Made by a program: the position numbers and the translations under genes. The notes under the pieces are model-generated. The model was not told the origin of the DNA, ran no database searches, and saw only the letters and a program-made list of their open reading frames with translations. Positions 27,047-52,027 of a stretch of DNA of 64,000 nucleotides are shown here, one piece after another; position 1 is the stretch's first letter; each line of letters opens with the position of its first letter. Origin of the DNA: Minisyncoccota bacterium. Its GTDB lineage: Bacteria > Patescibacteriota > Minisyncoccia > UBA6257 > 2-01-FULL-56-20. The DNA lies in assembly GCA_022843285.1 (NCBI GenBank), contig JALHNY010000003.1, positions 25,533 through 89,532 of the forward strand, written 5' to 3'.

Positions 27047-28153
27047 CTAGGAAACCAGGGGGGCGAGCACGTAGCGGTACGTCCCCTCTCCAGACCCGCG
27101 CAGCAGCGCGGGTTTGTCGACGTTGATGCCCATGGTCACGCGCTCGGCGGAAATAGCGCGCAGGCCGTCACTGAGCTGGCGCCAGTTGAAGGTCACGGCT
27201 GGGAAGGAACTCGTCACGTGGGCCTCCACGGATGTCGAGTGCGATCCGACCGCGTCACTGCCCGCAGAAATCGTCAGGGAAGCGTTTTCCCCCTCGCCGC
27301 TGGGCTCAATGGTGATCTCGCTGCCCTTAGCCGCGAACACGCTCGCGAGCTTGAGCGCTGCGGCGAGAGCTTCTCTGTTCACCGTGAACTCGGCAATGAA
27401 GCTGGGCGGGATGATCTGCTCGTAATCCGGGAACTGCGCCGAGATGAGGCGGGTGGTCACCTGCCAGCGCGGAGTCTCGAACGTAGCCTGGTGCGTCTCG
27501 AAGTAGCACGCGACGTCCTCGTCATCGTGTATGACGCGGGAGAGCTCTGAGGCTACCTTGGCGGGTATGAGCGCGCGGACGGATTTTTCTGGTAGCACCG
27601 CTCCGTCCACGGATGCCTCCGCGAGGCGGAAGCTGTCTGTTGCCACAAAACGCAGCATCCCTGCCTCTGTGGTGACGAGAACGGCAGCTAGCTCGGGTGA
27701 GAAGTCCGCGGCTCCCTGAGCGGCAAATGAGACCCGTGAGAGGGCCTCCCTGAACAGGGCACCCGGAATGGAGATCTGCAGCGCATCTGCGCCGCGAGTG
27801 GGGATGCTCGGAAAGTCATCTACGGGAGCACCCGCGAGCGTGCCGTTGTAGTGGTCCGTGGTGATGCCCAAGCCTGAACCCTGGGCCTCCAGTGTGACCC
27901 TCTCATCCGTGAGGGCACCCACGAGGCTGCCGAGGAGTGCGGTGGGTACGGATACCTTCCCGTGATCTACAACCTTGGCGGCCACGGTGGCGCGTACCGC
28001 GAGCTCGAGGTTGGTGGCGGTCAGTACGAGCTGGTCCCCCTCAGTCTCGAGGAGCACGTTGCGGAGCGCCGGGAGCTGGGCTCCCGAGCCGCTCGCACGC
28101 TCCACCAATCCCAGGGCTGCCGACAGGGTGTCGCGCAAAGTCACAGCTTTCAT
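27047..28153 (-). CDS. dnaN: DNA polymerase III beta subunit (sliding clamp)
   Basis: 368 aa, MKAVTLRDTLSAAL…, in the conserved position downstream of dnaA. Confidence 0.85.
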   Translation of the reverse strand: MKAVTLRDTLSAALGLVERASGSGAQLPALRNVLLETEGDQLVLTATNLELAVRATVAAKVVDHGKVSVPTALLGSLVGALTDERVTLEAQGSGLGITTDHYNGTLAGAPVDDFPSIPTRGADALQISIPGALFREALSRVSFAAQGAADFSPELAAVLVTTEAGMLRFVATDSFRLAEASVDGAVLPEKSVRALIPAKVASELSRVIHDDEDVACYFETHQATFETPRWQVTTRLISAQFPDYEQIIPPSFIAEFTVNREALAAALKLASVFAAKGSEITIEPSGEGENASLTISAGSDAVGSHSTSVEAHVTSSFPAVTFNWRQLSDGLRAISAERVTMGINVDKPALLRGSGEGTYRYVLAPLVS

Positions 28154-28278
28154 GCCGTAACTATAGTAGTAATAAATATATTGTTGTAGTTGTTAGTCCT
28201 GGGGATTCTGTGTACAAAATCCGTTGCCGATTTTAGGGGTAGGCGGGGGCTGGGAGTGCCGGTTTTTTGCCGTGTGGA
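28154..28278. other. dnaA-dnaN intergenic region with an AT-rich tract (candidate oriC DNA-unwinding element)
   Basis: The ~40-nt stretch ACTATAGTAGTAATAAATATATTGTTGTAGTTGTTAG is unusually AT-rich for this GC-rich genome. A DnaA-box-like TGTGGACTA lies at its dnaA-proximal end. Confidence 0.35.
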
Positions 28279-29622
28279 CTAGTGCTTGGAGAGCAGCTCA
28301 CGCACCCTGAATATCTTTTGGTTGAGGATTGCGTTCTGATCAGCTTCGCGTGCAATCTTCTCGTAAGAGTGGATAGCTGTGGTGTGGTCCCTCCCCAGCT
28401 TTTCCCCGATGGTCGGGTACGAGAGGTCAAGCATGTCGCGCAGGAGGAACATGGCAACCTGCCTCGGCTCCACAATTTCCTTGCGCCGCGAGCGGCCCAC
28501 CAGATCTTCCGTTGCGATGTTGTACACCTCAGCTACGGCGCTGATGACCTGCGTGTCGGTGACGGGCTTGGTGAGCGCGCGCATCGTTTTTTCAATGATT
28601 TCCTCGGCAATGGCAGCCGTGACCTCGCGGCCCCGCTTCTCCTGGAAGAACAGGAGCTTGGTGAGGATGCCCTCGAGCTCGCGGACGGACTTCTTCATCT
28701 TGCGGGCAATGACCTCCACCACGTCGTCCCCGAGGTGGCTAGATCGCTCGTCGAGCTTGCTGCGGATGATGGCTACCCTCGTCTCGAAATCGTACGCGGT
28801 AATGTCCGCGATCAGTCCGCCCTCAAATCGGCTGCGGAGGCGCTCCTCGAGGGTCGGGATGGCGTACGGGGGCCTATCGGACGAGATGATGATCTGCTTG
28901 TTCATCTCGTGGAGGGCGTTGAAGGTGTGGAAGAACTCCTCTTCGGTTTTGTCCTTTCCGCCGATGAACTGAATGTCGTCAATGATGAGGACGTCAGCTT
29001 CGCGGTACTTTTTTCGCATATCATCGGTGCGGCGGTTGCGGATGGACCACACGACGTCGTGCGTGAACTTCTCGCTCGTCATGTACTGCGGCCTCAGTGC
29101 CGGGTTCCGCTTCCTTATTTCGTTGCCGATTGCCTGAATGAGGTGAGTCTTGCCGAGACCCACTCCGCCGTACACGAAGAACGGGTTGTACTTGGTGCCG
29201 ACGTCATCGACGATGGCGAGCGCAGCAGCGTGGGCCAGCTCGTTCGATTGGCCCACGATGAATGAGTCGAGCGTGTAGCGCGTGTTGAGGCCAGTTGCCG
29301 CGTCAATCTTGAGATCGAGCTGCATTGAAGAAACCGGAACGTTAGCCTTTGCCGGACGCTTCGGAGCGGGAGCCGTGGAGCTGTTGATGACCACCTCGAT
29401 GTGCTTCACCTCGGGGTTCAGGGTGCGGACGATCCCCAATATGTCCTTCTCGTACTTGTCCTCAACCCATGACTTCGCGAAGGCGTTGTCCACCGCAACG
29501 CCGAGGGTGTCCCCAGAGAGGTGAGCCACGGTGGTGCTCTTCAGCCACATGCTGAAGTTGGTCCTTGAGATGCGCTTCTCCATCTCCTTGAGGACAGAAG
29601 ACCAGAGCTCGTTATGTTCCAT
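28279..29622 (-). CDS. dnaA: chromosomal replication initiator protein DnaA
   Basis: 447 aa with AAA+ Walker [11 protein letters not shown], Walker B, sensor motifs, and a C-terminal DNA-binding domain. Confidence 0.9.
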
Positions 29623-29768
29623 TTCGTGTGTTCAAGAGTGTCTGGGTGGTGGAGCGTGTTGGGACTATTGTATGGCCCGCAGGCCCCGCGTCAAAGTTTT
29701 CCACAGCCCCGAAATGTGGTCTGAATCGTCCATTTACAGCCAAATATGCCTCGTGTATGCTCTGCCCC

Positions 29769-29903
29769 ATGTCTCAGACCTACCAGCCCAAGAAGCGCAA
29801 GCGGGCGAGGACCCACGGGTTCCTCGTCAGGAGCGCCACGCCTGGTGGTCGTCGCGTCCTGGCGCGCCGCCGCCGCAAGGGTCGCGCAAAGCTCTCCGTC
29901 TAA
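29769..29903 (+). CDS. rpmH: 50S ribosomal protein L34
   Basis: [44 protein letters not shown], which is the in-frame tail of track ORF 29628..29903. Confidence 0.9.
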
Positions 29904-29924
29904 GGGCTCTGGTAACCTTTACCC

Positions 29925-30245
29925 ATGGTTCCCCGCTCCCTGCGGGCTGATCCCCGCGCGCTGCTCGCCGGGCAGGCCCAAGTAATCAGGCTCCCATGGG
30001 GTGTAGCCCGGTTCTCGCCCGGAAACACGGGTCTGGCGGTGGTAGTTCCGAAGAAAGCTGCAAAGCTATCCGTCGTGAGGCACCTGGCCAAGCGTCGCGT
30101 CGCGGGTGCGCTGCTGGGAAGCTTGCCGAATGGCTTCCAGGTCATGGTGACCCTCAACGCCGCGGGGGTATCCGCACGGGGAGAGAAGCTCCGGGCGTGG
30201 TGCCACGAGCTCGGGGAACGTATACTCCAATCCACCCATGCTTAG
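29925..30245 (+). CDS. rnpA: ribonuclease P protein component
   Basis: …GLAVVVPKKAAKLSVVRHLAKRRVAGAL… resembles the RnpA core. It sits in the conserved rpmH-rnpA-yidC order. Confidence 0.65.
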   Translation: MVPRSLRADPRALLAGQAQVIRLPWGVARFSPGNTGLAVVVPKKAAKLSVVRHLAKRRVAGALLGSLPNGFQVMVTLNAAGVSARGEKLRAWCHELGERILQSTHA

Positions 30246-30945
30246 CATCTACCACACGCTCATCGCGAACCCGCTCCTCAACATTCTCGTCGGTTTGTAC
30301 GAGACTGTTGCACTGGAAGACCTGGGGGTCGCCATTATCATTCTCACCATTCTGGTGCGCCTCGCCTTCTACCCGCTCTTCCAGAAAGGGCTGGAGCAGC
30401 AGGCGAAGATGCAGGAGCTGCAGCCAAAAATTAAAGAGCTCCAGGCGAAGCACAAGGGAGACCACGCGGCGCACTCGCGCGCACTCCTCGATCTCTACAA
30501 GGAGCACAAATTCAATCCGTTCTCGAGCGTGCTGATGCTCCTGATTCAGATTCCGATTCTCATTGCTCTGTACCACCTGTTCCTGAGCATCTTCTCTCCG
30601 GACGTCCTATCGCGCCTGTACGCGTTCGTCCCGAACCCCGGTGCTCTCAACCAGACGGCATTCGGGTTTCTCAACCTGACCGAGTCCTACTTCACGCTCG
30701 TCGCGGTAACCGCGCTCCTCCAGTTCGTGCAGGCGCGGATGGCAATGCGCGGCGTGAAGTTCAACGACAAGGCGCAGCAGATGACGAGTCAGGTGCTCGT
30801 CTTCGTGGCGCCGGTCATTACGCTGGTGATCTTCGCGACGCTTCCCGCCGCGGTGACCCTGTACTGGCTGGTCTCATCGCTGCTGTCCGTGGGGCAGCAG
30901 TACCTCGTCTCGTACCGTCGCGCCAATGCAGAAGCTACCTCCTGA
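30238..30945 (+). CDS. yidC: membrane protein insertase YidC (short, Gram-positive type)
   Basis: 235 aa with five TM helices and a coiled-coil loop (…QAKMQELQPKIKELQAKHK…). Confidence 0.85.
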   Translation: MLSIYHTLIANPLLNILVGLYETVALEDLGVAIIILTILVRLAFYPLFQKGLEQQAKMQELQPKIKELQAKHKGDHAAHSRALLDLYKEHKFNPFSSVLMLLIQIPILIALYHLFLSIFSPDVLSRLYAFVPNPGALNQTAFGFLNLTESYFTLVAVTALLQFVQARMAMRGVKFNDKAQQMTSQVLVFVAPVITLVIFATLPAAVTLYWLVSSLLSVGQQYLVSYRRANAEATS

Positions 30946-31357
30946 GCAGTTCGTAGAAAAAACCCTGAAGTTGCTGGGTTTTGAGGACGTTAAGGTCTCG
31001 GTAGACGAGGACGGGCGCCGGGGCGCGCTGGTTATCGAGGGGCTGGATGGCGAGCACCTGCAGGACATGATCATGGCCACGAACGCCCTGGTTGCCAGGC
31101 ACGCAGAGAAGCACAAAGAGAAGGCCCCCTTCTTCGATATCAACGGGTACCGCGCCCAGCGCGAGGAGCTCATCTCTTCAATTGCGGCAGCGGCGGCGGA
31201 GAGGGTTCTCCAAAAAATGGAGGCCATCAGTCTCCCTCCCATGAACTCGTACGAGCGCAGGCTCATCCACGAGCACGCCTCTCAGGTTCCCGGAGTCAGC
31301 AGTGAGAGCGCCGGCGAGGGCAAGGAGCGCCACGTGGTTATTTCCCCCGAGGCCTAG
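30926..31357 (+). CDS. jag: Jag/KhpB-like R3H-domain RNA-binding protein
   Basis: C-terminal R3H-like segment …YERRLIHEHASQVPGV…; conserved position after yidC. Confidence 0.7.
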   Translation: MQKLPPEQFVEKTLKLLGFEDVKVSVDEDGRRGALVIEGLDGEHLQDMIMATNALVARHAEKHKEKAPFFDINGYRAQREELISSIAAAAAERVLQKMEAISLPPMNSYERRLIHEHASQVPGVSSESAGEGKERHVVISPEA

Positions 31358-32496
31358 ATTGCAGATTTGTACAGTGCGCCGGTGATGCGGTCTAGGTAGT
31401 AGACGGTGCTGCCAACCACCTGCAGGTCGGTGGCATCAACGGGAGCTGGCGTTGCAATGGTGAAATCTACGGAACGGGTTTCCAGGTTCACGCCCACGAG
31501 GACGTCATCGCTGAAGAACTCCTTGCGGTAGTAGGCGTCCGGGAGTGTTTTTCTCTGCAGGTCATCTTGGTCACGAGGTGCGCCGCAAACAACGTAGGGC
31601 GTCTCCTCATCCTCACCCGTGGGCATGCCAAAGAATGTGCACTTGTCTGGGATGGTGGTGAAAGAGAGCACCGCCTGCTCGATGCCGCCCACGATGAGCT
31701 TGGTGCGTCCGCCAGATCGGTACTGGTTAGCCTGGAAGGCCAGTGCGGTCTGCGCCGCGTCGTCCCACTTCGCTGCGTAGCCGAGCTTGCCCCGTGCAGC
31801 AATGGTCACGCGACCAGACGCCACGTCTACCGCCCAGGTAGAGCCGGCGCTCTGGTAGTTGGGCTTATCGGTCACGAGGATGGTCTGGGCATTGGGCCAG
31901 TCAATGGCTACGTCGCCCAGGGCGAGAGCCACCACCGTCCGAACGGTGCGGCCGAGTGCCGTGTCGTAGATGCCGATGGCAGTCTTTCCGGTAGCTGTGT
32001 CAGGCGTGAGCGTGGCGAGCTGGCTTCCCGAGGGCGCCCACGTCGCATCGCGGAAGGTGCCGGGGACAACGCGCCAGGTTGCGGAGGCAACCTCAAAAAT
32101 GTTGACCTGAGTGCGAGGCTGGTTACCCGTGAGCACCAGAATGCGGCTCCCATCGCCCGAGAAAGATGCGGATGCAAAATTCTCAACCGGCTTGTTGGAC
32201 AGGCTGGTGACCGTGGTGCTGGCAACGCGATCTATCGTGCCGTCCCTGTGCACTGCGACCACGCTCTCATCCGCGTACACGTAGTAAGCAGCAATGTCAG
32301 AAACGGGGATGGTCGCCTCGGCTAGGAACTCTCCGTTGCCCGGGTCTGCGGGGTTAAACTCCCCTCCAATTTCGGGGAGGTTACCGGCTGCGTCCCCCGC
32401 CCCGCTTGAGCCGCCGAGGAGCCAGTACCCCGCCAGGCCGATGAGGGCCAGCACGAGCAGCAAGACCAGAATGATGATTATTCGACGTCGGTTCAT
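31354..32496 (-). CDS. membrane-anchored hypothetical protein, possibly a beta-propeller
   Basis: N-terminal TM helix (IIIILVLLLVLALIGLAGYWLL) and a Thr/Ser/Gly-rich repeat-like extracytoplasmic region. Confidence 0.4.
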   Translation of the reverse strand: MNRRRIIIILVLLLVLALIGLAGYWLLGGSSGAGDAAGNLPEIGGEFNPADPGNGEFLAEATIPVSDIAAYYVYADESVVAVHRDGTIDRVASTTVTSLSNKPVENFASASFSGDGSRILVLTGNQPRTQVNIFEVASATWRVVPGTFRDATWAPSGSQLATLTPDTATGKTAIGIYDTALGRTVRTVVALALGDVAIDWPNAQTILVTDKPNYQSAGSTWAVDVASGRVTIAARGKLGYAAKWDDAAQTALAFQANQYRSGGRTKLIVGGIEQAVLSFTTIPDKCTFFGMPTGEDEETPYVVCGAPRDQDDLQRKTLPDAYYRKEFFSDDVLVGVNLETRSVDFTIATPAPVDATDLQVVGSTVYYLDRITGALYKSAI

Positions 32497-32517
32497 GCTA
32501 AGTGCCCAAATTATAGC

Positions 32518-33447
32518 TTACTTTTTCTTGCAAGCAGGCTGACTTTGGATGCGGGTGATCTGCTCCTGGGTCAGACCGCCCCAGGTGCCCGAGGGGCACC
32601 CCTCGACGTGGAAGTGGTTGCCCGTCGAGCGCCCAGAAGCTTTGAAGCCGCACCCCGCGAATTCGTTCTTGTAGTACTCGTTGAGTGCAAAAACCCCGCA
32701 CGCGGTGAGGGCGTCGTAGAAGTTCTTCACCGCTTCGCAGTTCCTGGCGTAGCTCGCGGGTAGGACGAAGTCAGCAGAGCAGCCCGTGTAGTGCATGACG
32801 GAGCAGTGCTTGAGGCCGCTCACGGGGTAGGCTTCGGTGAAAATGATGCCGCTCGTGGGGACACCCAGCCTGTCAGCTGCGCACTTCACGCCGTTCACGA
32901 TGACCTTGTGGGCCGTGCACTCAGTGGAGACCTGGCACTTGAAGCCAGCCGCTGCAAGGTTTGAGCACCCCTGCGGGTTGCTTATGCAGGTGTCGGTTGC
33001 GGGCGGCACGACGCCGTTGCCCCTGGTGGTTCCTCCCGTTGTCGGCTGCTCCTGGTCCTGCTCAACCACAATCTGGTAGTTCGTGTCCCACCCCTCCCCC
33101 CGCTTGCCCTCGAGGGGCGCGAGGTACGGCAGCTGCAGCGTCGTGAGCCCCGGGTTCACGACGGCGAGGATGGCCCCGGCGCCGACGAGCAGGAGCGCCC
33201 CCACGAGGGCCTGCACGATGCGGTCCCACGCGTCCGCGAGCGCCGCGGGGTTGCCCCGGGAGAGCGTGTACTGGACCGCCCCGTACGCGATGCTCCCCAG
33301 GGCGAGGAGCCCCGCGACGGCGAGCGCGAGCAGGTACGCGTTCTGCACGAACGCGAGGACGCCCCCGTCCTGGCTCGGGTCCAGGGGGCCGGGGAGGCCG
33401 GGGGTGATCTTGGTTGCAGCTGCCCGCGCCGCCTCAATTAGCATCAC
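32518..33447 (-). CDS. double-TM (VirB2/TrbC pilin-like) N-terminus fused to a Cys-rich LAS/M15-type zinc-peptidase-like domain; putative cell-wall hydrolase
   Basis: Two long hydrophobic helices are separated by a short loop within residues ~30-100. The C-terminal domain carries H-x6-D (HYTGCSAD) and H-x-H (NHFHVEG), the zinc-ligand signature of LAS enzymes (M15/VanY-like). It also has many paired Cys. Confidence 0.45.
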   Translation of the reverse strand: MMLIEAARAAATKITPGLPGPLDPSQDGGVLAFVQNAYLLALAVAGLLALGSIAYGAVQYTLSRGNPAALADAWDRIVQALVGALLLVGAGAILAVVNPGLTTLQLPYLAPLEGKRGEGWDTNYQIVVEQDQEQPTTGGTTRGNGVVPPATDTCISNPQGCSNLAAAGFKCQVSTECTAHKVIVNGVKCAADRLGVPTSGIIFTEAYPVSGLKHCSVMHYTGCSADFVLPASYARNCEAVKNFYDALTACGVFALNEYYKNEFAGCGFKASGRSTGNHFHVEGCPSGTWGGLTQEQITRIQSQPACKKK

Positions 33448-34118
33448 TGAACCGGATCCAGGCTCACGCTGGCCTCAGCTCCCTCGCTCTCGGAGAGTGC
33501 ATTCTCCACGGACACGCCCACGTCCGCACCCTGCGTCGGGATTCCATCAACGGTGATGCTCAGTTCTCGCGGATCTCCGCTCGCCTCGGGAACCATCCCG
33601 TTGATGGTCCACGTGTAGAGCAGGTCATCAGCCGATGCCACGTTGAACGAGTACGGTGTTGCCTTGAAGTAGTTCTCCCCGGACCTCAGGAAAGACCCCC
33701 CGGGTGCCTCGATGACCACGCTGGGTTCAGCAAAAGGGACCACCATTGTTGCCTCGGTCGCGCTGAACGGTGCGCCGACAATCTGGACCCGGACATCGAT
33801 GTAGTCATCAGAAAACTCGGAGACGCGGAAGGTCGTCGAGAAGAGCCCCGGGCCACTCTGGTAGAGGTCGTCGTTGATGAACCAGCGAACCTCGTAGTTT
33901 CTCAGGTCTGCGGGGCGGCCATTCACCAGGGCTTCAACCAGCAGCAGGACGCTGCCACCCACCGGCGATGCCACCTTGCCCGCGTACCCCTCGGGGCTCA
34001 GAGCGTTGCTCCTCCAGGAGACCATGAGATCGCTGCTGGGAGTTGCGGGTGCCTGGGCGAACGCCGGATTCGCCACCGCAAAAGCAAGTGCGACACCTGC
34101 GGTGAGAAACTTGAGCAT
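33444..34118 (-). CDS. secreted hypothetical protein (signal peptide, 224 aa)
   Basis: N-terminal signal peptide MLKFLTAGVALAFAVANPAFA-QA; the start overlaps the upstream stop by 4 nt. Confidence 0.4.
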   Translation of the reverse strand: MLKFLTAGVALAFAVANPAFAQAPATPSSDLMVSWRSNALSPEGYAGKVASPVGGSVLLLVEALVNGRPADLRNYEVRWFINDDLYQSGPGLFSTTFRVSEFSDDYIDVRVQIVGAPFSATEATMVVPFAEPSVVIEAPGGSFLRSGENYFKATPYSFNVASADDLLYTWTINGMVPEASGDPRELSITVDGIPTQGADVGVSVENALSESEGAEASVSLDPVQ

Positions 34119-34157
34119 GATGCTAATTGTACCTTTTCCCGCTACCGGCTCCCAGCC

Positions 34158-34946
34158 CTACCCTGCTGGCTTGGGTGGTTGGCTGCGGCTGGTCGTTTTT
34201 GCTCCCGTGACGTCAACGTCAATGACGTCGGTGAGCTCTGGGAGGTTGTCCCGCTCGAGTTCCTCGTACGGGGCGAAGAACGGGTTGCCCGCTTCTTTAG
34301 AATCGGGGTTGCGGCTTTCAGAAATACCGGTTCTGGCCATCTCGTACGCCTGCTTCATCTTAGATTTCTTCGGCAGGTACCCATCTCCGGCACCCCGGTT
34401 GCCGCTCTCGGGGATAGAGCGCAGGGGTCCGGGCAGGCGCTGGCGGAGGTCGCTGACCTTCTTCTTGTACTGCTCAGCTTTTTTCTCAACCTGCTCGAGC
34501 TTCTGCATGCGCGCCGCCACCCGCTCTCCGGCAGCTGCCGCCTTGGCGCCGGCCATGTTTTTCGAGGGAATGTACTGGACCACCGTAGAGGCAATCTTGC
34601 TCTGGTCTGTTGCGATCACGAGAATTGCGCCAACCAGGTAGAGGGGCAGGTAGTCCACGATGGGGATGTACTCCGCGAAGTACATCACGAGGAACCGCAC
34701 CATGGGGCGCATGGAGGGAATCCCCTTGTAGATCAGGTAGATGAGCAGGATGACCGCCATGGCGGTCGCCAGAATATCCGCAATCGGGATTTCAAATGCG
34801 AGCGTGTCGGCAATGCTCAGGATGTCGAGGATGAGCGAGACAATGATGAGCAGGGCTGCGCCCACTTTGCCTATCTTGTGCGCGTTCCCAGTGTCCTCTC
34901 CCGCATCTGGATTGCCACCGGCGGCCATGGTTTGGTACCGGTCCAT
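34158..34946 (-). CDS. hypothetical membrane protein (3 TM plus coiled-coil/basic tail)
   Basis: Lies immediately downstream of the VirB4-like gene; has hydrophobic helices and a Lys-rich coiled-coil. Confidence 0.4.
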   Translation of the reverse strand: MDRYQTMAAGGNPDAGEDTGNAHKIGKVGAALLIIVSLILDILSIADTLAFEIPIADILATAMAVILLIYLIYKGIPSMRPMVRFLVMYFAEYIPIVDYLPLYLVGAILVIATDQSKIASTVVQYIPSKNMAGAKAAAAGERVAARMQKLEQVEKKAEQYKKKVSDLRQRLPGPLRSIPESGNRGAGDGYLPKKSKMKQAYEMARTGISESRNPDSKEAGNPFFAPYEELERDNLPELTDVIDVDVTGAKTTSRSQPPKPAG

Positions 34947-34949
34947 CGT

Positions 34950-36671
34950 CTACACGAGCCCCGTTTCCTCGAGGAGCTGCTGGGGATTTGTGGTGATGAG
35001 CTTGTCCTCAAAGAAGGACGGAATGATCTGGAGGGCGATGTGGCGCTGCCCGGCGAAGAACAGGCCGGTGCCCACCTCCGCGGTCAGGAGGAGGTTCTTC
35101 TCGGTCTCGGTTAGGTTGAAGGCTTTGCCCACAATGTCGATGGTTGCGGGAGCCTGCTTGAGCAGGAGCTGCACGGACGAGTTCGTGATAATCGGGCGGC
35201 CGTACGGGGAGCGGAGGAAGTCCTCCACGTCCTGCGTGATGGTGGAGACGCCGAGGTAGTACTTGCGGGCGCGCTTCACCAGGCCGAAGAGGAAGTTAGC
35301 ACTGTCCTCGTTCTTCATCATGATCCAGGCCTCATCGATGAAGAGCAGGCGCTTCTGGAACCGGGCGCGGATGAGGTTCCAGATGAAGTTGAGGATGACG
35401 TACATGGCCACGGGGCGGAGCTGCTCCTCGAGGTCACGAATCGAGAACACAATGAGGCGGTTGTTGAGGTCAATGTTCGTGGGCTTGTTCACGAATCCGG
35501 AGAAGCTGCCCTGCGTGTACTTGTACAGGCGCTCGGCAAGGGAGCGGCCGCCGTCGATGCTGCGCAGGACCGTCTCGAGGTCCTCCAGAATCGGAGGCTG
35601 AGCCTTGGAAAAATCCTCTCCGGCAACAATTTCACGGCTGGCGTACGTCTCCGTGATGGCGCGGTCCAGGAGGGCGTCCTCTTCGCTCGTCATCTCGCCG
35701 AGCATGAGGCGCGCGAGGCCGGCGACCGAAACGATGTGGGACCGCAGAACGTCCGAGGCAGACTCGTTGGGTGGGACGATGGGAATGTCGAACGGGTTAA
35801 TCGTGTTGTTGCTGGTCAGCGAGATGTTGAAGAAGCTTCCCCCGAAAGCCTCGGTGAGCTTCTGGTACTCGTTCTCGGGGTCGATGACGATGATGTTGGT
35901 GCCCATCATCAGCGAGCGGATAATTTCCAGTTTCGTCGCGTAGCTCTTTCCAGAGCCGGACTTTGCGAACACCACCTGGTTGGCGTTCTCCAGGCTGAAG
36001 CGATCGAAGATGACCAGGCTGTTGTTGTGCCGGTTGATGCCGTACATGATGCCCTCCTCGCTCATGAGGTCCTCTGCCACGAACGGGAAGAACGAGGAGA
36101 GCGGCCCCGAGTTCATGGGGGTTGTGACGTTGATTTTGTCCTGGGAGAGAGGAATCGTGGATAGGAGGCCCTGGAGCTGCTGGAATAGAGCCGGCTTGAG
36201 GTACACGAGCTTGGCTTCGAGCATGGACGTAATCTTGGATTCGAGCTTGGACAGTGCGACCTCTGAATCAGCGTAGATAGTGATGTACACGCCCACCGTG
36301 AAGAGCTTCTCCTGCGCCTGCTGGAGGGTGTCGCGGAGGCCCTCGACGTCATCGAGGGCAGTCTCGAGCTGCGGGTCGCGCACGAGACCCTTGTCAGCGG
36401 CCGTGTTCATCTGGGCTTCCACCTGGGCTGCCTTCTTGCGGAGCTGCTTGAGTGCCAGGCCCGTGTCGAACGGGTTCACGAACATGGCAATGTCCAACAG
36501 CTCAGGCAGGTTCACGATGGGCTCGAACCAGCCGGTGGTCAGGAACCTCGGGTAGCCGAAGAAGAAGAGAGTCTTCGCGTACTTGGTGCCGATTTTGACG
36601 CTCGACGATCCCACCTCTACGCCTGCGGGTGAGATGATCTGCTTCGCGGACTGGAATGCTGAGTCTGGCAT
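34950..36671 (-). CDS. VirB4/TrbE/CagE-family T4SS ATPase, ATPase portion
   Basis: Walker A VVFAKSGSGKSYATK, Walker B LLFIDEAWIMM, and a 'GYPRFL' segment typical of Gram-positive VirB4 homologues. Its start ATG lies 2 nt after the stop of the upstream ORF encoding the VirB4 N-domain. Confidence 0.8.
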   Translation of the reverse strand: MPDSAFQSAKQIISPAGVEVGSSSVKIGTKYAKTLFFFGYPRFLTTGWFEPIVNLPELLDIAMFVNPFDTGLALKQLRKKAAQVEAQMNTAADKGLVRDPQLETALDDVEGLRDTLQQAQEKLFTVGVYITIYADSEVALSKLESKITSMLEAKLVYLKPALFQQLQGLLSTIPLSQDKINVTTPMNSGPLSSFFPFVAEDLMSEEGIMYGINRHNNSLVIFDRFSLENANQVVFAKSGSGKSYATKLEIIRSLMMGTNIIVIDPENEYQKLTEAFGGSFFNISLTSNNTINPFDIPIVPPNESASDVLRSHIVSVAGLARLMLGEMTSEEDALLDRAITETYASREIVAGEDFSKAQPPILEDLETVLRSIDGGRSLAERLYKYTQGSFSGFVNKPTNIDLNNRLIVFSIRDLEEQLRPVAMYVILNFIWNLIRARFQKRLLFIDEAWIMMKNEDSANFLFGLVKRARKYYLGVSTITQDVEDFLRSPYGRPIITNSSVQLLLKQAPATIDIVGKAFNLTETEKNLLLTAEVGTGLFFAGQRHIALQIIPSFFEDKLITTNPQQLLEETGLV

Positions 36672-36673
36672 GG

Positions 36674-37339
36674 CTACGCGGCGGGGGCGGTTGGCATGGG
36701 AACGTCGGTGCGCTCAATCGTGTCGGGGTTGTAGAAGTTGTAGTACAGCTCTACCAGCTCCTGGTTGTTGAGAATGGTAGCCTCGAGGCCAATCTGGCGG
36801 ATGCCGTCTATGACCGACTCGACCCTCTGCTGGAGCTGCCCCGCGTTCTCCTTGAAGGTGCTCTCGGTGGAAGCTTTCATTTCCTCCTCGTTCTTCTTTT
36901 TTCCGAAGAAGGGCAGCGAGCTCGTCACGCTGCTCGCGGACGGAAGGTTCATCGGGTAGTACGGGACCACCACGATGAACATCTTGCGCATGATGGCGAA
37001 CTGGGAGACGAAGCCGCGAATGAACTCCTGGTACTCGTTCATCTGGTTGCGGAGGAGGCCGCTCGGCTCGTCGGAGCGGCGCTTCTCCAGGAGCGAGAGG
37101 TACTTCTCGATGTTGATCTTGCGAGAGTGAATGACAATCTGGACCTGGTAGTCCAGTGCGTTGAGAAAGTTCTGGTACGCGCGGACGATCACGTTCTGCT
37201 CCTCCTCAGACTTGAGGGCGAAGTTGGTGCCGCCAACCATGACGAGCTGGCACATGCCTCCGCCGCGCAGCATGACGATGTTGTCCCTGATGTCAGAGAT
37301 CTCAACCAGGTCCTGGGAGTTCGCCGCGTTTGAAGCCAT
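36674..37339 (-). CDS. VirB4 N-terminal domain (CagE_TrbE_VirB-like) encoded as a separate ORF
   Basis: …ISDIRDNIVMLRGGG…FALKSEEEQNVIVRAYQNFLNALDYQVQIVIHS… follows the pattern at the start of Gram-positive VirB4 proteins. It ends in TAG and is in a different frame from the downstream ATPase ORF. Confidence 0.6.
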   Translation of the reverse strand: MASNAANSQDLVEISDIRDNIVMLRGGGMCQLVMVGGTNFALKSEEEQNVIVRAYQNFLNALDYQVQIVIHSRKINIEKYLSLLEKRRSDEPSGLLRNQMNEYQEFIRGFVSQFAIMRKMFIVVVPYYPMNLPSASSVTSSLPFFGKKKNEEEMKASTESTFKENAGQLQQRVESVIDGIRQIGLEATILNNQELVELYYNFYNPDTIERTDVPMPTAPAA

Positions 37340-37371
37340 GGAGGTATTATCTGCGATGGAACTGCTGGATG

Positions 37372-37878
37372 CTAGCCGGTGAAATCGACGCGCTTGGCTG
37401 CCCGGAGCTCGCCGGTGACCTGGCGGAACACCTCGAACGTGCTCTCCGCGGCGGGGTCGCGGACGTCTTTCTGCTCGGCTTTGCTGCCGGTTTGGACGTA
37501 CTGCCAGGTCTTTTTGAGGCTGGTGCCCGAGATGATGCTCTCGAGGTTCAAGCTGCCGCTGACCTGGTGCATGGTCTCGGTGTTCTTGGGCATCTGGGGC
37601 TTATCCGGCTGCCAGAGGTAGAGCTGGGGGTTCCAGTAGAAGAGGAAGCCGAGGATGACGAGCTTTGAGAGCTTCTGCCCGTTCACTTTGACGAACGCGA
37701 GGCTGATGCCAGCTCCGCCAACCACCAGGGCGAAGAGGATGAAAAGGAAGCTCTGGAAGAAGAAGTACAGAACGAAGATCAGGGCTGCCGTGATGCAGAC
37801 GTAGATAAACTGGCGAATCGTGAAGGGACCCGCGATTTTATCCTCGGTATCGATGAACTGTGGGATCTGGTACTGCAT
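37372..37878 (-). CDS. PrgI-family / VirB3-like small membrane protein
   Basis: N-terminus MQYQIPQFIDTEDKIAGPFTIRQFIYV followed by two TM helices matches, from memory, the PrgI family found upstream of VirB4 in Gram-positive T4SS loci. Confidence 0.55.
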   Translation of the reverse strand: MQYQIPQFIDTEDKIAGPFTIRQFIYVCITAALIFVLYFFFQSFLFILFALVVGGAGISLAFVKVNGQKLSKLVILGFLFYWNPQLYLWQPDKPQMPKNTETMHQVSGSLNLESIISGTSLKKTWQYVQTGSKAEQKDVRDPAAESTFEVFRQVTGELRAAKRVDFTG

Positions 37879-37908
37879 GGCGCCTCCTGGGCGCTAGTCT
37901 ACCACGCT

Positions 37909-39000
37909 TTACGCCTTCGGAGGTGCCGGAAGGTCGTCTATGGGGGTCGGAGCTCCAGCGTGGGTCGGCGCGGGCGCAGTCGGAGTTTCCGAGTAGTCCA
38001 CGTTCTTTGCGTCCGCTGGAATCGGAGCTTCGAGGACGTCAGTCGCGTGCTTGCGGTTGGCCCCAAACTTTGCGGAGTGCCACGGGGCAATCTTGCTGAT
38101 AATGCTGTCCACGAAGCCGGAAGGGGCTGCGTCAGGCTCTGGCTGCATCGGAACGGAGACCACCTCTGGAGAGGGCGTGACGGGCAGGTCCATTGCCGGC
38201 ATTGGGGTGGTCGCGAGCGGCACCGGGGCGGTCATCGAGAACGCCGGAGGGGCGACGTTCTGCGCGGAGTAGTCGATCTCCTGCAGCTGCGGCGTCTTCT
38301 TCTCCACGAAAATGGACTGGAACTTCGAGTCCAGGCTGGCCGCCGTGCCGAGGTCGATGCGGGCCGCCCTGCGGGGAGGGGCGGATGGCGTAACGCCAGG
38401 CGCAATGTTGCCGCTGCCCATGGGGCCGCCAATGCTCGCCGTTGCAGCAGATACCTGCTGCTGGTTTGCGAGGGCATCGCTGTGGAGCGGCAGGGGGGCC
38501 GGGGCAGCAGAGGTCGGCACGAACGCTGGCACCGAAGCCGTGCCGGCCACCGGGGCGGGCACGACCCGCTGCGGTGCCACGGGGGTGGAGCTCGGCATGC
38601 TCGCGGGTGCGCCGGAGATTGCAGATCCGCGAAGGTCGAGCTGGGGGCCGATGGGAACGGGCACCGTTTTCTTGGTTGCAGCGCCCAGCTCCTCTTCTCC
38701 GATGCCGAAGCGGACCAGGTCGTTGGCAATGGGGAGGAGAATTTTTAGCTTCACCTCTTCGTAGACAGAGCGAGCGAGGGCCGGCGTAATGCCGAGCTCA
38801 GTAGCGAGCCTGCCCTCAAATTCGGAGAGCTTGATGTCGCGCACCTCGAGAGCGAAGAGGAGCCTCGGGAGGGCAGTTTCAGTTTCCGGCAGTGAGAACT
38901 TCTGCTCGATGTCGACGATAGCCTGGTCAACGGCATCGCTCCAGAACCAATCCTGGATTGGCTGCGGTACTGCTCTCAGTTTTTCTTGTGCGGTGGCCAT
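37909..39000 (-). CDS. hypothetical protein with a Pro/Ala-rich low-complexity C-terminal two-thirds
   Basis: 363 aa, a ~110-aa N-terminal globular region then a P/A/S/T-rich repeat region; no TM helix. Confidence 0.4.
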   Translation of the reverse strand: MATAQEKLRAVPQPIQDWFWSDAVDQAIVDIEQKFSLPETETALPRLLFALEVRDIKLSEFEGRLATELGITPALARSVYEEVKLKILLPIANDLVRFGIGEEELGAATKKTVPVPIGPQLDLRGSAISGAPASMPSSTPVAPQRVVPAPVAGTASVPAFVPTSAAPAPLPLHSDALANQQQVSAATASIGGPMGSGNIAPGVTPSAPPRRAARIDLGTAASLDSKFQSIFVEKKTPQLQEIDYSAQNVAPPAFSMTAPVPLATTPMPAMDLPVTPSPEVVSVPMQPEPDAAPSGFVDSIISKIAPWHSAKFGANRKHATDVLEAPIPADAKNVDYSETPTAPAPTHAGAPTPIDDLPAPPKA

Positions 39001-39009
39001 GGTTGCAGT

Positions 39010-41274
39010 TTAGCTAGTTCCCCAGAGCTGGTTAATCGCGTCCTGCTTCGTCTTCACCTCGCCCTTCGAGTCCACCGTCGACTGGAGCTTGGCGCGCGCC
39101 CTCTCGCGGCGGGTCTCGAAGTTGACGCTCTTCTCCAGCGTGTTGAGCATCGCCTTGATCTTCGTTTCGGTGGTGCGCTTGTGGTTCTTGAGGCCCTCAG
39201 CGTCGAGTTTGAGATCCTTGAAGTACGCTTCCCACTTCTTGTCGTCCCCGTTTGCCTTGTCCTCCTCAATCATCTTGCTGAGGAAGTCGAGCGTGCTGTC
39301 GATGTGGTCAATGGTGAGCGGGTTGATGTCACCAATTTTCTTGAGGGTGCCGGTGTTGATGGCGAGCGTGTTGAGCGCCTGCCCGAGCTGGACGCCGCCA
39401 TCGTCATCTTCCTTGGGGCCGAACATGGTGACCTCGTTGGCGATGTTGATGACGTTGTCTGGCTTGATGGCGCCGACGTAGCCCGCGATGGCTTCCTCCT
39501 TGGTGATGACGTCGCTGTCGTCTTTGGCGTCCTTGCGCTTCTTGAGCGGAGCAAACTCTGCCAGGCGAGGATCTGCCTCGAGGACGTCCTTGAGGTTGCC
39601 GGCGTCAGCCTGCCTCTTGAAGAGCTTCTCGAGCTTCTCCTTTTCGACCTGCTCAGCTTTTTTCTTCTTTTCAGGGTCTTCGGTCTCCCCCATCTCGCCC
39701 TTGCTGCGGGTCTTGGCTGCGGTTGAGATGCGCTCATCCATCTGCTTCTTGATGTCCCCGAGGCCCTTCTTGTCTTTGAGGAGCTCGAGAATGGCCGCCT
39801 CGCGGTCCGGGTTCGCAGCGAGCGAGCCACTGCTGAGGCGATCCAGCTCCTTGAGGAGGGCGTCCTTGGTGAGGCCGCCGAGGTCAGTCTTGTACCCCTT
39901 GATGCGCTCCTCGGGACCCTTGCGATCTACGACACCCGCTTTGGCAATGGCAGAGCCGGCCGCGCCCAGGCCGACCATGCGAGCGGCGCGGTTCCCCGAG
40001 GCGAGGGTGGAGAGTCGTGATCCGAAGCGCTGGAGCCTCGAGTTGCCGTCCGCATCCTTGCCCGAGCTGCGGGCACGATCGAGCGCGCGCAGGCCAGCGT
40101 TCTTGGAGCGTGTCGTGACCTGTCGCTTCACGGAGTTGCCCGCGGATTCCATTATTTTCACACCGGTGCCCGCTACGCCGATGCCCATTTTGTGCGCGAG
40201 GTAGAGGCCTCCCCACAGTGCGCCGCCGATGATGCCAGCGGTCATGATTTGATCCACCATCGGCTGCAGGAAGCTGCCCAGAATTCCAGAGAACGCGTTG
40301 AGCACGCCCTTGTTAGCAGATGCCGCTGTTCCCAGTCCGCCTGATGCGTTGATGCCACCAGAAGCGGCGAACACGTCGGCAATGCGGAGACCCAGGTACA
40401 GGAAGAACAGGGCTACCGGGCCGAAGAAGGTCCACTTGATGAACAGGTTCATCCACTTGGATACGTACGACTGGGAGAACGGGAAGATCCAAGCGACCCA
40501 GACACCGGGGAGCATGACCAGCAGCAGTCCTAACCAGATGTACCTCAAGAAGAAAGCTACGATCATCACCCCGAGGAACAGGAGCACCTGGAAAATGAGG
40601 GCAACCGTGATGAAGACGCTGACAATCATCGCGTACATCTGGCCAGCGTTGGCAGCGGCATCGCCAAACTGCTTAGCCCACTCGTCCTTCGGGTCACCCT
40701 TGATGAAACCCTGCTGCGGCTGCGTTGCCGTTGCGAGCCTGTCGGCAAACTCAAAGAACTGGGTGTTGCCGTCTCCGGTGGGCACGGACGCGTTCAGGAA
40801 GAACATGGATAGCTGATCTGAGAACGACAGGGCGGTACCAGCGAGAACCAAGCTGAAGTTCACGCCAACCGCGGCGATGACAATCTTGAGGAGCAGCTGC
40901 CTGACGCCGTACGTGTTCCAGCGGACAATCGTGGCAACAGCCATCGTGATGACGGCAGCGACGAAGAGGATGTTGGCGAATGCCAGGACAATAGAGAAGC
41001 CAACCGATACCGTCGGTGAGTTAACAATGTCGAGGTTGAGCCGCATGACGACGCCCAGGAAGAAAGCCTCGATTGCAATGAAGAGCGCTCCAATTGAAGC
41101 AATGGCCCACGAAATTGCGTACGTCGCGTAGAGGAAGGCACTGAAGATGCCACCCTTGACCGACTCGAAGAGGTCAAAGATGGACCAAGCAGCGTGAGCC
41201 TGCTCGGGAACGAGCAGGAGCAGCGCGCCCAGTGCCGCAGCAGTGCCGAAGCCAAGGATCCTCGCTCTATTCAT
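39010..41274 (-). CDS. VirB6/TrbL-like polytopic T4SS membrane protein with a long charged C-terminal extension
   Basis: Signal-like N-terminus, at least seven TM helices with a conserved-looking GxxxW region, then a ~380-aa Lys/Glu/Asp-rich tail. The start is set at the internal Met (MNRARILGF…), 4 nt from the upstream stop. Confidence 0.5.
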   Translation of the reverse strand: MNRARILGFGTAAALGALLLLVPEQAHAAWSIFDLFESVKGGIFSAFLYATYAISWAIASIGALFIAIEAFFLGVVMRLNLDIVNSPTVSVGFSIVLAFANILFVAAVITMAVATIVRWNTYGVRQLLLKIVIAAVGVNFSLVLAGTALSFSDQLSMFFLNASVPTGDGNTQFFEFADRLATATQPQQGFIKGDPKDEWAKQFGDAAANAGQMYAMIVSVFITVALIFQVLLFLGVMIVAFFLRYIWLGLLLVMLPGVWVAWIFPFSQSYVSKWMNLFIKWTFFGPVALFFLYLGLRIADVFAASGGINASGGLGTAASANKGVLNAFSGILGSFLQPMVDQIMTAGIIGGALWGGLYLAHKMGIGVAGTGVKIMESAGNSVKRQVTTRSKNAGLRALDRARSSGKDADGNSRLQRFGSRLSTLASGNRAARMVGLGAAGSAIAKAGVVDRKGPEERIKGYKTDLGGLTKDALLKELDRLSSGSLAANPDREAAILELLKDKKGLGDIKKQMDERISTAAKTRSKGEMGETEDPEKKKKAEQVEKEKLEKLFKRQADAGNLKDVLEADPRLAEFAPLKKRKDAKDDSDVITKEEAIAGYVGAIKPDNVINIANEVTMFGPKEDDDGGVQLGQALNTLAINTGTLKKIGDINPLTIDHIDSTLDFLSKMIEEDKANGDDKKWEAYFKDLKLDAEGLKNHKRTTETKIKAMLNTLEKSVNFETRRERARAKLQSTVDSKGEVKTKQDAINQLWGTS

Positions 41275-43639
41275 CGAGGGTGGGCAGCGGGATGTTGCAG
41301 GCTCGGTCGCGCAGGTTCTCCTGTGCGGCATCGCGGAGGCCATCAATCTGAGCGACGCGAATGGCAACGCGTGTCAGTACCGAGGCCATGCTCGAGTTGA
41401 TGACGTCCGCCTCGTTCATGTACGTGGCAATGCCCATGGCGGATGTGGAGCTGGCGACGTTGGAGCGGAGTGTGGCCAGCGTCCTCCCCGTGCGGGAGAG
41501 CTCAGTGCGGTCAGTTTCGTTGGTCGGTGCGATCCGATCAATTGCGCCAATGCGCTGGTTCGCGTCCGAGGCGTAGGCGGTGCAGGTGAGGGCCACCGAG
41601 CGCAGCACCGGAACGGTCGAAGACGCCGTGGTGGGCCAGGTTGCCGCAGAGCTCGATGCTTGGTTGATGCGGCTTTCGAGGCTGCCAATGAGCTGGAGAG
41701 CCTGGCTCCTCAGTCCATCGATGTCGGGGTCAGGGTCCCCGCTGCCCGGGAGCGTGCTGGTGCCCGTCGTGCTCGTCGTGCTGGGACCCGGGCCACCGCC
41801 GTCTCCGTTGAACAGGCCCAAGATGCCACGCTCGGCCATGCCGACCAGGCGGGTGATGGCGGCATCAATGAGGACGCCAATGAGCCCCGCCAGATCTTCT
41901 GCGTTGACGATGTTGTCGAGGGAAGCGCCGAGAGCTTTCTCGACCTGGCCAGCCACAGCGCCACCTGGAGTGGTCTGCTGCATGCCACCGGGGCGACAGA
42001 CTTTCACCTCGCAGTACCTGCCCGGTGGCAGTGAAGAGGGAACCGTAGTCGTGCCGCGCGTGATGGTGCTGACCGAGAAGCAGCCGCGTGGACCTATGCC
42101 GACGACGCCCGAACTGCTGGATTGGTTCATGGTTTGGTACTGACCCTCCGTCATGATCTCGAGGTCGTAGCTCACGCACCGCTCCATCCCCTTGTACCCC
42201 TGGTTGGCGGCAGCATTTTGGCTCGCGGCCTCAGCGCTAGCCTGGGACTGTCGGGCAATTTGCTCGTTGGCTAGGATGACAGCTCCGAAGACGTTGTTCT
42301 CGGGGAGGACGGAGCTCAGGAAGCCTGCCCAGCCGCCCGCGCGGAAATCGTCATAGAAGGCGCGGATGTTCTGCACAACCTGATCTAGGGTGCAGGTAAT
42401 CGGGGTTTGGCGCGTTTCGGGTATGAAGGCGCGAGCTCCTCCCGAGGCGAACGTTGAGAAGTTGGTACACAATTGGGGCGCAATCATGGTGAGGGCTTGG
42501 TTGGCAGCCCCCACGCCAGCATCCGTCAGGAACTTCTTCCAGTTCGTGATGAACTGGGGCTTGCCGCCGCCCTGGACCCACTTGATGGTCTGCTGAATCA
42601 TGCGGCCCACAATCTGGTTCTTGAGGATTTGGGTCGCAATTTTTCTGGCCCACTCCACGAGCGTCTGCGTCCAGGTACCGGCAATGCCAACGCCGTTGAA
42701 GATGCTGACGATGATGTGCTTGATGTCCGTGAAAACGAACGCGTGAGCGGAGGAAACGCCGAGCATCGACGCAATCATGAAAGGCTCGCGCGCTTGCGCG
42801 AACATCTCGGGAGCCTTCTCCTCGAACTGCGTTACCGCAAGGTGTACCCGAGCTTCCTCCTGTGCCCGCAGCTCGGGGAACTTTGCGGTGAAGACCACCG
42901 CCTTGAGCGGATCGGTCGCGTAGTTGATGTCGCTGAGCTGCCGGTTGAGCTCGAGGTACGTGAGGAGTGAGCGGTGCATGTCCGCTGCTGGCTCCGGGAC
43001 GGTCGCATTGTAGAGTGCCTCCTGCGCATCGGAAAAGATGAAGTTCGAAGCTTGCATGGAGGCTTCGGTCGGCTCTCCGTAGGAAGCGCGAGCCATCAGG
43101 CCGGAGATGCCGCGATCGCTGTTGATCTTCGACATGGTTTGGTCGAGGGTCGTGAAGTACTCGTCGACCTGCGTCGTCGTGTAGTTGCGCACCACTTTCA
43201 CCCTGCCCTCATCGATGGCGTACGTCGTGGGGGCCATCGCCGCGTCGGTGACGTACTCGTCAACGAATGACTCGATGTCGATCGGGGGTGCGATGCCGTA
43301 CCCCTCTTCCGGCCCGTTCGGGTTCTGCTTCACGAACTCGTACGCCAGGCCCTTGGCGAGAGTATCCGTGTAGTTCTCCCGGGTTGTGATGGTCGGGGAG
43401 AACTCTTTCGCTAGGTCGTAGCCTTCCACGACGCGCCCGCCGGGGATTTCTTCAATGAGCGCCGTGTCTCCAATCTTGGGGACCTGCGACTCGGCATTTT
43501 TTTGCACCGTGCGCGCGATGAGGGCGTCCCCCTCGCTGCGCTGGCGTGCGAGGCTCGTGACAGCGAGCGTTGCAGAGCCAGCCAGAAGGGCGAGGACCAA
43601 GAAGGTCGTTACGAGCCGCCGGAGATCGTGACTCTGCAT
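41267..43639 (-). CDS. large (790 aa) N-terminally membrane-anchored extracytoplasmic protein, hypothetical (first gene of the T4SS-like cluster)
   Basis: Single N-terminal TM helix (LVTTFLVLALLAGSATLAV) and a long Ser/Thr/Gly-containing ectodomain. No family recognised. Confidence 0.45.
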   Translation of the reverse strand: MQSHDLRRLVTTFLVLALLAGSATLAVTSLARQRSEGDALIARTVQKNAESQVPKIGDTALIEEIPGGRVVEGYDLAKEFSPTITTRENYTDTLAKGLAYEFVKQNPNGPEEGYGIAPPIDIESFVDEYVTDAAMAPTTYAIDEGRVKVVRNYTTTQVDEYFTTLDQTMSKINSDRGISGLMARASYGEPTEASMQASNFIFSDAQEALYNATVPEPAADMHRSLLTYLELNRQLSDINYATDPLKAVVFTAKFPELRAQEEARVHLAVTQFEEKAPEMFAQAREPFMIASMLGVSSAHAFVFTDIKHIIVSIFNGVGIAGTWTQTLVEWARKIATQILKNQIVGRMIQQTIKWVQGGGKPQFITNWKKFLTDAGVGAANQALTMIAPQLCTNFSTFASGGARAFIPETRQTPITCTLDQVVQNIRAFYDDFRAGGWAGFLSSVLPENNVFGAVILANEQIARQSQASAEAASQNAAANQGYKGMERCVSYDLEIMTEGQYQTMNQSSSSGVVGIGPRGCFSVSTITRGTTTVPSSLPPGRYCEVKVCRPGGMQQTTPGGAVAGQVEKALGASLDNIVNAEDLAGLIGVLIDAAITRLVGMAERGILGLFNGDGGGPGPSTTSTTGTSTLPGSGDPDPDIDGLRSQALQLIGSLESRINQASSSAATWPTTASSTVPVLRSVALTCTAYASDANQRIGAIDRIAPTNETDRTELSRTGRTLATLRSNVASSTSAMGIATYMNEADVINSSMASVLTRVAIRVAQIDGLRDAAQENLRDRACNIPLPTLDE

Positions 43640-51950: not shown

Positions 51951-52023
51951 GCACCCATAGCTCAACGGTTAGAGCAGTCGTCTTATACACGACCGGTTCC
52001 TGGTTCGAGTCCAGGTGGGTGCA
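51951..52023 (+). tRNA. tRNA-Ile with a UAU anticodon (AUA-decoding)
   Basis: GCACCCA-TA-GCTC-AACGGTTA-GAGC-A-GTCGT-CTTATAC-ACGAC-CGGTT-CCTGG-TTCGAGT-CCAGG-TGGGTGC-A. All stems pair perfectly, with U33 and A37 flanking anticodon TAT. Confidence 0.75.
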
Positions 52024-52027
52024 CCCG

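Follow-up and report, generated by a model that had tools for sequence, protein, structure and literature searches.

VirB4 encoded as two adjacent, conserved genes in a chromosomal type IV secretion operon of a Minisyncoccota bacterium

In the 64,000-nt stretch of the Minisyncoccota bacterium contig JALHNY010000003.1 analyzed here (the window), a VirB4 of normal total length is encoded by two tail-to-head open reading frames (ORFs), which raises the question of whether these are two genuine genes or a single gene that has been broken in nature or in the assembly. A first-pass annotation of the letters had described the pair and left four readings side by side, namely a naturally split gene with tight translational coupling, a frameshift or nonsense pseudogene, a programmed frameshift, and an assembly error. 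On the minus strand the junction reads ...CCC GCC GCG TAG cc ATG CCA GAC..., in which the segment TAG-CC-ATG (36669..36676) comprises the stop codon of the first ORF (TAG, 36676-36674), a 2-nt spacer (CC, 36673-36672) and the start codon of the second (ATG, 36671-36669). The upstream ORF (N ORF; 221 aa, 36674-37339, minus strand) ends in ...PMPTAPAA, and the downstream ORF (ATPase ORF; 573 aa, 34950-36671, minus strand) begins with MPDSAFQ. Since the ATG lies 5 nt past the first base of the stop codon, the two ORFs are in different frames, and upstream of the ATG the ATPase frame is open for 15 codons only. No promoter-like or terminator-like site was found when the junction was scanned for promoters and terminators. 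The description of the pair was confirmed in its junction, coordinates, lengths and frames, and so was the remark that the sum (221+573 = 794 aa) is a normal VirB4 length, given that fused homologues have 775-804 aa.

The 573-aa ORF encodes a VirB4 ATPase that lacks the first N-terminal subdomain and consists of the second half of the N-terminal domain and the P-loop C-terminal ATPase domain, the latter being a hallmark of the VirB4 family. It matches the NCBIfam model conju_CD1110 with 386 bits (cut-off 325 bits) over profile positions 185-733 of 752. In Pfam, it matches P-loop_TraG, AAA_10, DUF87 and the last quarter of TraC_F_IV (positions 277-374 of 375). Its residues 206-559 align with PDB 4ag5, a solved VirB4 C-terminal domain (E 2.4e-41), residues 1-205 precede this region, and residue 231 is aligned to residue 446 of TrwK. 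A complete VirB4 N-terminal domain on one chain of ~800 aa is absent here, as the CD1110 match begins at position 185 of 752. Membership of the family is also indicated by the gene cluster, which contains a PrgI/VirB3-like gene and, as judged by synteny, a VirB6/TrbL-like gene.

The N ORF matches three VirB4 profiles, each of them partially: NCBIfam VirB4_plasma at profile positions 99-210 of 894 (E 1.1e-12), NCBIfam CD1110 VirB4 at positions 5-98 of 752, and TIGR00929. Searching it against a Pfam set that lacks PF26593 gave no family at E<=0.01 and faint matches at E<=1, and a precomputed annotation assigns PF26593 ('TraC-like') to a protein that is 100% identical to it (P0001). A total of 760 homologues of the N ORF were found, and the best 120 of these 760 are all stand-alone proteins of 205-243 aa that all carry PF26593. 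In the homologue alignment, the start Met and ~50 columns are invariant, and all homologues terminate at one point past a YNFYNPxTIE motif. A profile search of PDB sequences with this alignment gave no match at E<=1, so a comparison of folds was needed. Using an AlphaFold model of medium quality (pLDDT 67), Foldseek returned TrwK/VirB4 chains for all of the top 14 PDB matches (probability up to 0.98, TM ~0.32), and no other kind of chain was matched with a probability >0.5. The N ORF belongs to VirB4. Its first-pass description as the VirB4 N-terminal domain holds for the family and has to be narrowed in extent, because the protein represents the detached first half of that domain.

A name for such a protein is available from the literature. 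TrsD has been described as a remote homologue of the VirB4 N-terminus (PMC12102498), and Quinonero-Coronel et al. 2025 counted 2,272 homologues of TrsD in Patescibacteria and found 1,664 of them beside virB4 (PMC12102498); TrsD is not mentioned by name in the main text of Guglielmini et al. 2014. Residues 12-89 of the N ORF match positions 19-101 of 201 in the TrsD/TraD model NF041427 with E 8.8e-7 and 28.9 bits, a score below the curated cut-off of 200 bits. Comparison of the N-ORF alignment with pSK41 TrsD by hhalign gave a probability of 13% over 68 columns. Two traits of TrsD are found in the N ORF, which is a 221-aa protein encoded directly upstream of a short ATPase and has homology to the VirB4 N-terminus. 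Judged by these sequence comparisons, it is a TrsD homologue that falls outside the narrow staphylococcal subfamily.

The relationship between the two proteins becomes clear from VirB4 proteins that consist of a single chain. A fused VirB4 gene is present in two Colwellbacteria loci, and one of its products (L079, 790 aa) is collinear with the N ORF followed by the ATPase ORF: the junction of the window maps to a short linker of variable sequence without any loss of residues, which settles the point on which an alignment to full-length homologues had been suggested. A database search with the fused protein yielded >110 fused clusters of 775-804 aa having PF26593 in the N-terminal part together with the ATPase domains; fused and split forms of VirB4 are both abundant. 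In the AF2 model of the fused homologue (pLDDT 73), residues 209-220 form a low-confidence coil flanked by helices 192-203 and 224-228, and this coil coincides exactly with the gene break of the window. The entire fused model is matched to full-length TrwK/VirB4 with E 1.6e-28 and a TM of 0.65. The N-terminal domain of TrwK spans residues 15-400 (PMC9259494), so the cut is located in the middle of this domain and does not separate it from the C-terminal domain. As predicted by these models, the break occupies a variable, disordered linker within the VirB4 N-terminal domain.

These data also bear on the alternative in which the 221-aa protein has a role of its own as an accessory factor, being a diverged paralogue of the VirB4 N-terminus, and is not a fragment that complements the ATPase. 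TrsD has indeed been treated as a separate component with no function assigned, and Gracilibacteria possess TrsD homologues that are not associated with virB4 (PMC12102498); moreover, the N ORF has the higher rate of evolution of the two. However, the ATPase is devoid of exactly the segment that the N ORF provides, the CD1110 profile being tiled without overlap by the N ORF (5-98) and the ATPase (185-733). Together with the collinearity of the fused homologue, the match of its model to full-length TrwK, and the adjacency and constant order of the two genes in 77 of 79 loci, this makes an independent accessory factor improbable.

We then consider the readings in which the split is accidental. 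The same 221-aa gene, 2-nt spacer and 573-aa gene, with identical junction DNA, are present in the independent assemblies from SRR15359043 and SRR33155350. Both ORFs are also intact in relatives with 86%, 84% and 68% identity, where they are separated by a 3-nt gap, overlap by 4 nt (ATGA) and overlap by 8 nt (ATGCCTGA), respectively. Among 80 species-representative Patescibacteria genomes, 79 loci were evaluable, and 77 of them have the N and ATPase genes as separate neighbors in unchanged order; the proposal to look for the same split at orthologous loci was thereby answered positively. Across the 77 split loci, the spacers range from -8 to +163 nt (median 8) and exceed 30 nt in 16 loci, and relative frames 0, 1 and 2 occur in 17, 34 and 26 loci. 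The junction thus drifts freely between relatives. The own ATG of the ATPase is conserved, usually as Met-Pro.

If the split were an assembly or sequencing artefact, a single 794-aa gene would have been broken up falsely by a 1-base indel within a GC-rich run (CCGCCCCCGCCGCG). A C-rich, indel-prone run does adjoin the junction, and fused VirB4 genes of ~790 aa are known in other Patescibacteria. Nevertheless, two independent read sets agree on the junction, the relatives are split with junctions different from that of the window, and the ATPase begins with the conserved Met-Pro that is also seen in relatives with long spacers. An error of this kind is therefore exceedingly improbable.

To place the split in evolution, a neighbor-joining (NJ) tree of the ATPase part was built (189 taxa, 568 columns) and rooted with pSK41 TrsE. 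In this tree, the 73 ATPases of the split type group into a single clade (98% of NJ bootstraps), and the fused forms are paraphyletic. This topology fits a single old fission. The direction of the change, fission rather than fusion, rests on an NJ tree with a weak root, since pSK41 TrsE is a very distant outgroup and comes from a split pair as well.

The fixation of the split across this clade is difficult to reconcile with a recent frameshift or nonsense mutation in a formerly fused VirB4. What speaks for such a pseudogene is the presence of two ORFs in different frames whose sum equals the normal VirB4 length. Nevertheless, in comparisons with three relatives, the N ORF has a dN/dS of 0.14-0.33 and the ATPase one of 0.03-0.11 (0.03-0.33 over both), which shows that both halves are under purifying selection. 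Neither of two hallmarks of pseudogenes, a dN/dS near 1 and scattered extra stops in the relatives, was seen. In addition, the break occurs at the same linker throughout, with independent start and stop codons, and the TrsD homologue of Ca. Southlakia epibionticum is reported to be essential (PMC12102498). The probability of a recent pseudogene is accordingly negligible.

The close spacing in different frames could also reflect a programmed -1 ribosomal frameshift or readthrough that yields a fused VirB4 besides the short N protein. If ribosomes shifted by -1 within the final 15 codons of the N ORF, they would indeed read through GTA GCC ATG into the ATPase frame. However, no slippery heptamer of the form X XXY YYZ was found within these 15 codons, and neither the relative frame nor a short spacer has been kept among the relatives, which makes this mechanism very improbable as well. 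Taken together, the identical junctions, the split relatives, the dN/dS values and the drifting frames exclude three of the four initial readings, and the comparative data support the natural split with tight spacing.

Two conserved, selected and adjacent genes jointly tile one VirB4. We consider the most probable explanation (probability of roughly 0.92) to be a natural and ancient fission, owing to which a chromosomal type IV secretion system (T4SS) operon close to oriC encodes VirB4 as two polypeptides.

Further examination of the operon, which extends from 41367 down to 31354 on the minus strand, revealed the order 785-aa membrane protein, 363-aa ORF, PrgI/VirB3-like gene, N ORF, ATPase and four further ORFs. 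The PrgI/VirB3-like gene (37372..37878, minus strand) encodes a 168-aa membrane protein with a match to Pfam PF12666 PrgI (E 2e-9). It is located directly upstream of the N ORF with a 32-nt gap, a position that is kept in the relatives L081-L086, and its product is likely the membrane anchor for the N subunit. The polytopic 785-aa protein (39010..41367, minus strand) has no match in local Pfam; it is syntenic with a TrbL_3/VirB6-like gene of relatives, including a 797-aa gene of L083 that carries PF19590 TrbL_3, and through this synteny it may be likened to TrbL_3/VirB6. The four downstream ORFs (262, 224, 309 and 380 aa; 31354..34946, minus strand) belong to the same tightly packed operon and have no Pfam match, and a syntenic 293-aa gene of L083 has a weak T4SS_pilin match. 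Intergenic gaps are short across the operon, such as the 3 nt between the ATPase and the 262-aa ORF. The operon adjoins jag(R3H)/yidC and dnaA/dnaN. With regard to translation signals, a clear AGGAGG is present upstream of the PrgI/VirB3-like gene only, and a Shine-Dalgarno sequence is missing from most genes of the operon. The lack of one in front of the ATPase ATG is therefore uninformative, and it was rejected as evidence of translational coupling for the same reason.

How the fission products might work can be outlined as follows. The N ORF and the ATPase are probably co-transcribed, and translation of the ATPase would begin at its own ATG; with a spacer of 2 nt, termination-reinitiation is the probable mode. 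Coupling of ATPase translation to that of the N ORF is plausible as judged from the spacing only, and it is not obligatory, since spacers are longer than 30 nt in the 16 loci mentioned above. A VirB4-like protomer is most likely restored by non-covalent association of the two chains. In R388, VirB3 is wrapped round the N-terminal domain of VirB4, and this domain is also responsible for the dimer interface (PMC9259494). By comparison with TrwK of R388, the N subunit would give a membrane-proximal surface that contacts the PrgI/VirB3-like protein and neighboring protomers. The most likely role of the 221-aa subunit would thus be that of a membrane-proximal adaptor linking the motor to the PrgI/VirB3-like protein.

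Comparison with known systems shows that the split is real, natural, conserved and already known. The closest counterpart is the pair of TrsD and VirB4 reported in Patescibacteria (PMC12102498), which the first-pass annotation had not recognized in the two ORFs. This pair shares with the window the order PrgI/VirB3-like, TrsD-like and VirB4 as well as a chromosomal location beside dnaA/dnaN/yidC, and the same protein family occurs in hundreds of Patescibacteria genomes. A location of the Patescibacteria T4SS near dnaA has likewise been reported (PMC12102498). Nothing substantive differs between this pair and that of the window; given the published TrsD-virB4 pairs and their dnaA context, the window locus is one more instance of the published arrangement.

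A more distant comparison is provided by the TrsD/TraD and TrsE/TraE proteins of the staphylococcal conjugative plasmids pGO1/pSK41 (MPF_FATA, pGO1 subclass). In pSK41, trsD (227 aa) is followed after a 14-nt gap by a 672-aa DUF87 ATPase, so that here too a protein of ~227 aa is encoded just upstream of a VirB4-like ATPase that is short at its N-terminus. In an alignment of the two ATPases, residue 1 of the window protein is matched by residue 18 of its pSK41 counterpart, which indicates an equivalent break point. However, sequence similarity is very low, at 24% for the ATPase and with a score of 28.9 bits for TrsD, where the cut-off is 200, and the pSK41 system is plasmid-borne and conjugative with a relaxase, whereas that of the window is chromosomal and near oriC. 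TrwK of R388 and the fused VirB4 proteins of Patescibacteria (Colwellbacteria and others) share the overall fold and domain order with the window pair and differ in that the first ~215 residues of the window VirB4 reside on a separate polypeptide. The VirB3-VirB4 fusions of some conjugative systems (PMC12102498) indicate that the boundaries between parts of the inner-membrane complex are evolutionarily plastic there as well, although they represent the opposite change: the window has a separate VirB3/PrgI, and VirB4 itself is split.

A speculative idea, which we regard as unlikely, is that the same inter-subdomain linker of VirB4 has been cut independently at least two times, once in the pGO1/pSK41 plasmids of Firmicutes and once inside Patescibacteria. 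If such recurrent cuts were true, a free N subunit would give a selectable property and fission would not be neutral; for example, the N subunit could have a stoichiometry or an assembly order unlike that of the ATPase, in a T4SS that epibionts need for survival.

Beyond what has been published (PMC12102498), the present analysis adds the collinear fused homologues, a break in a predicted disordered linker inside the N-terminal domain, a single clade of split forms, and a drifting junction. The practical value of the result lies in annotation: both genes of the locus are to be treated as genuine, one encoding the VirB4 ATPase and the other a TrsD-like N-terminal subunit of VirB4, and the pair should neither be flagged as a frameshifted pseudogene nor be 'corrected' to one ORF. 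The T4SS of Patescibacteria has been reported as essential to their epibiotic lifestyle, and the coexistence of split and fused VirB4 offers a natural experiment on how VirB4 docks to VirB3.

The replication-origin gene set immediately adjoins the T4SS operon (31354-41367, minus strand), occupying positions 27047-31357 of the window. It comprises dnaN (27047-28153, minus), dnaA (28279-29622, minus), yidC (30238-30945, plus), and an R3H/Jag-like gene (30926-31357, plus), and dnaN is neighboured by a gene for an 828-aa class A penicillin-binding protein with transglycosylase and transpeptidase domains (24558-27044, plus). A T4SS likewise close to oriC has been described previously (PMC12102498).

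Among the genes of the T4SS operon, a clear AGGAGG motif was found upstream of the PrgI-like gene only, and no Shine-Dalgarno sequence was detected within the 20 nt preceding the start codons of the remaining operon genes, dnaA, and dnaN. This scarcity suggests that translation initiation in this genome is largely Shine-Dalgarno-independent. Regarding start sites, the mechanically called ORF of the 785-aa polytopic membrane protein (39010-41367, minus) begins with TTG, and its initial ~30 residues appear non-native. Translation more likely starts at an internal Met (MNRARILGF...), behind which lies a signal-peptide-like stretch ending in AHA.

In a Colwellbacteria locus with a fused, single-gene VirB4 (L076; JACOTQ010000019.1, 188-2158 and downstream), this gene is interrupted past approximately residue 640, and the conserved C-terminal part (GRPIITNSSLQLLLKQ...) continues in a different frame. 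Either a frameshift, a deletion, or an error in assembling this record accounts for the interruption.

The GC content of the window is 62.5%, and that of its closest relatives (L001, L081, and L083) is 57-64%, compared with a median of 51% (range 25-61%) across 80 related Patescibacteria loci. The window and these relatives represent a high-GC sublineage within a usually lower-GC group.

With regard to RNA genes, a full-length tmRNA gene (1117-1483, plus) was matched by Rfam (RF00023, 104.5 bits), although it was absent from the ARAGORN output. Both ARAGORN and the Rfam tRNA model identified a tRNA-Ile with the anticodon UAU (51951-52025, plus). In most bacteria, AUA is read by a TilS-modified CAU tRNA, which makes UAU tRNA-Ile uncommon. 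This gene may be informative about AUA decoding in this lineage.
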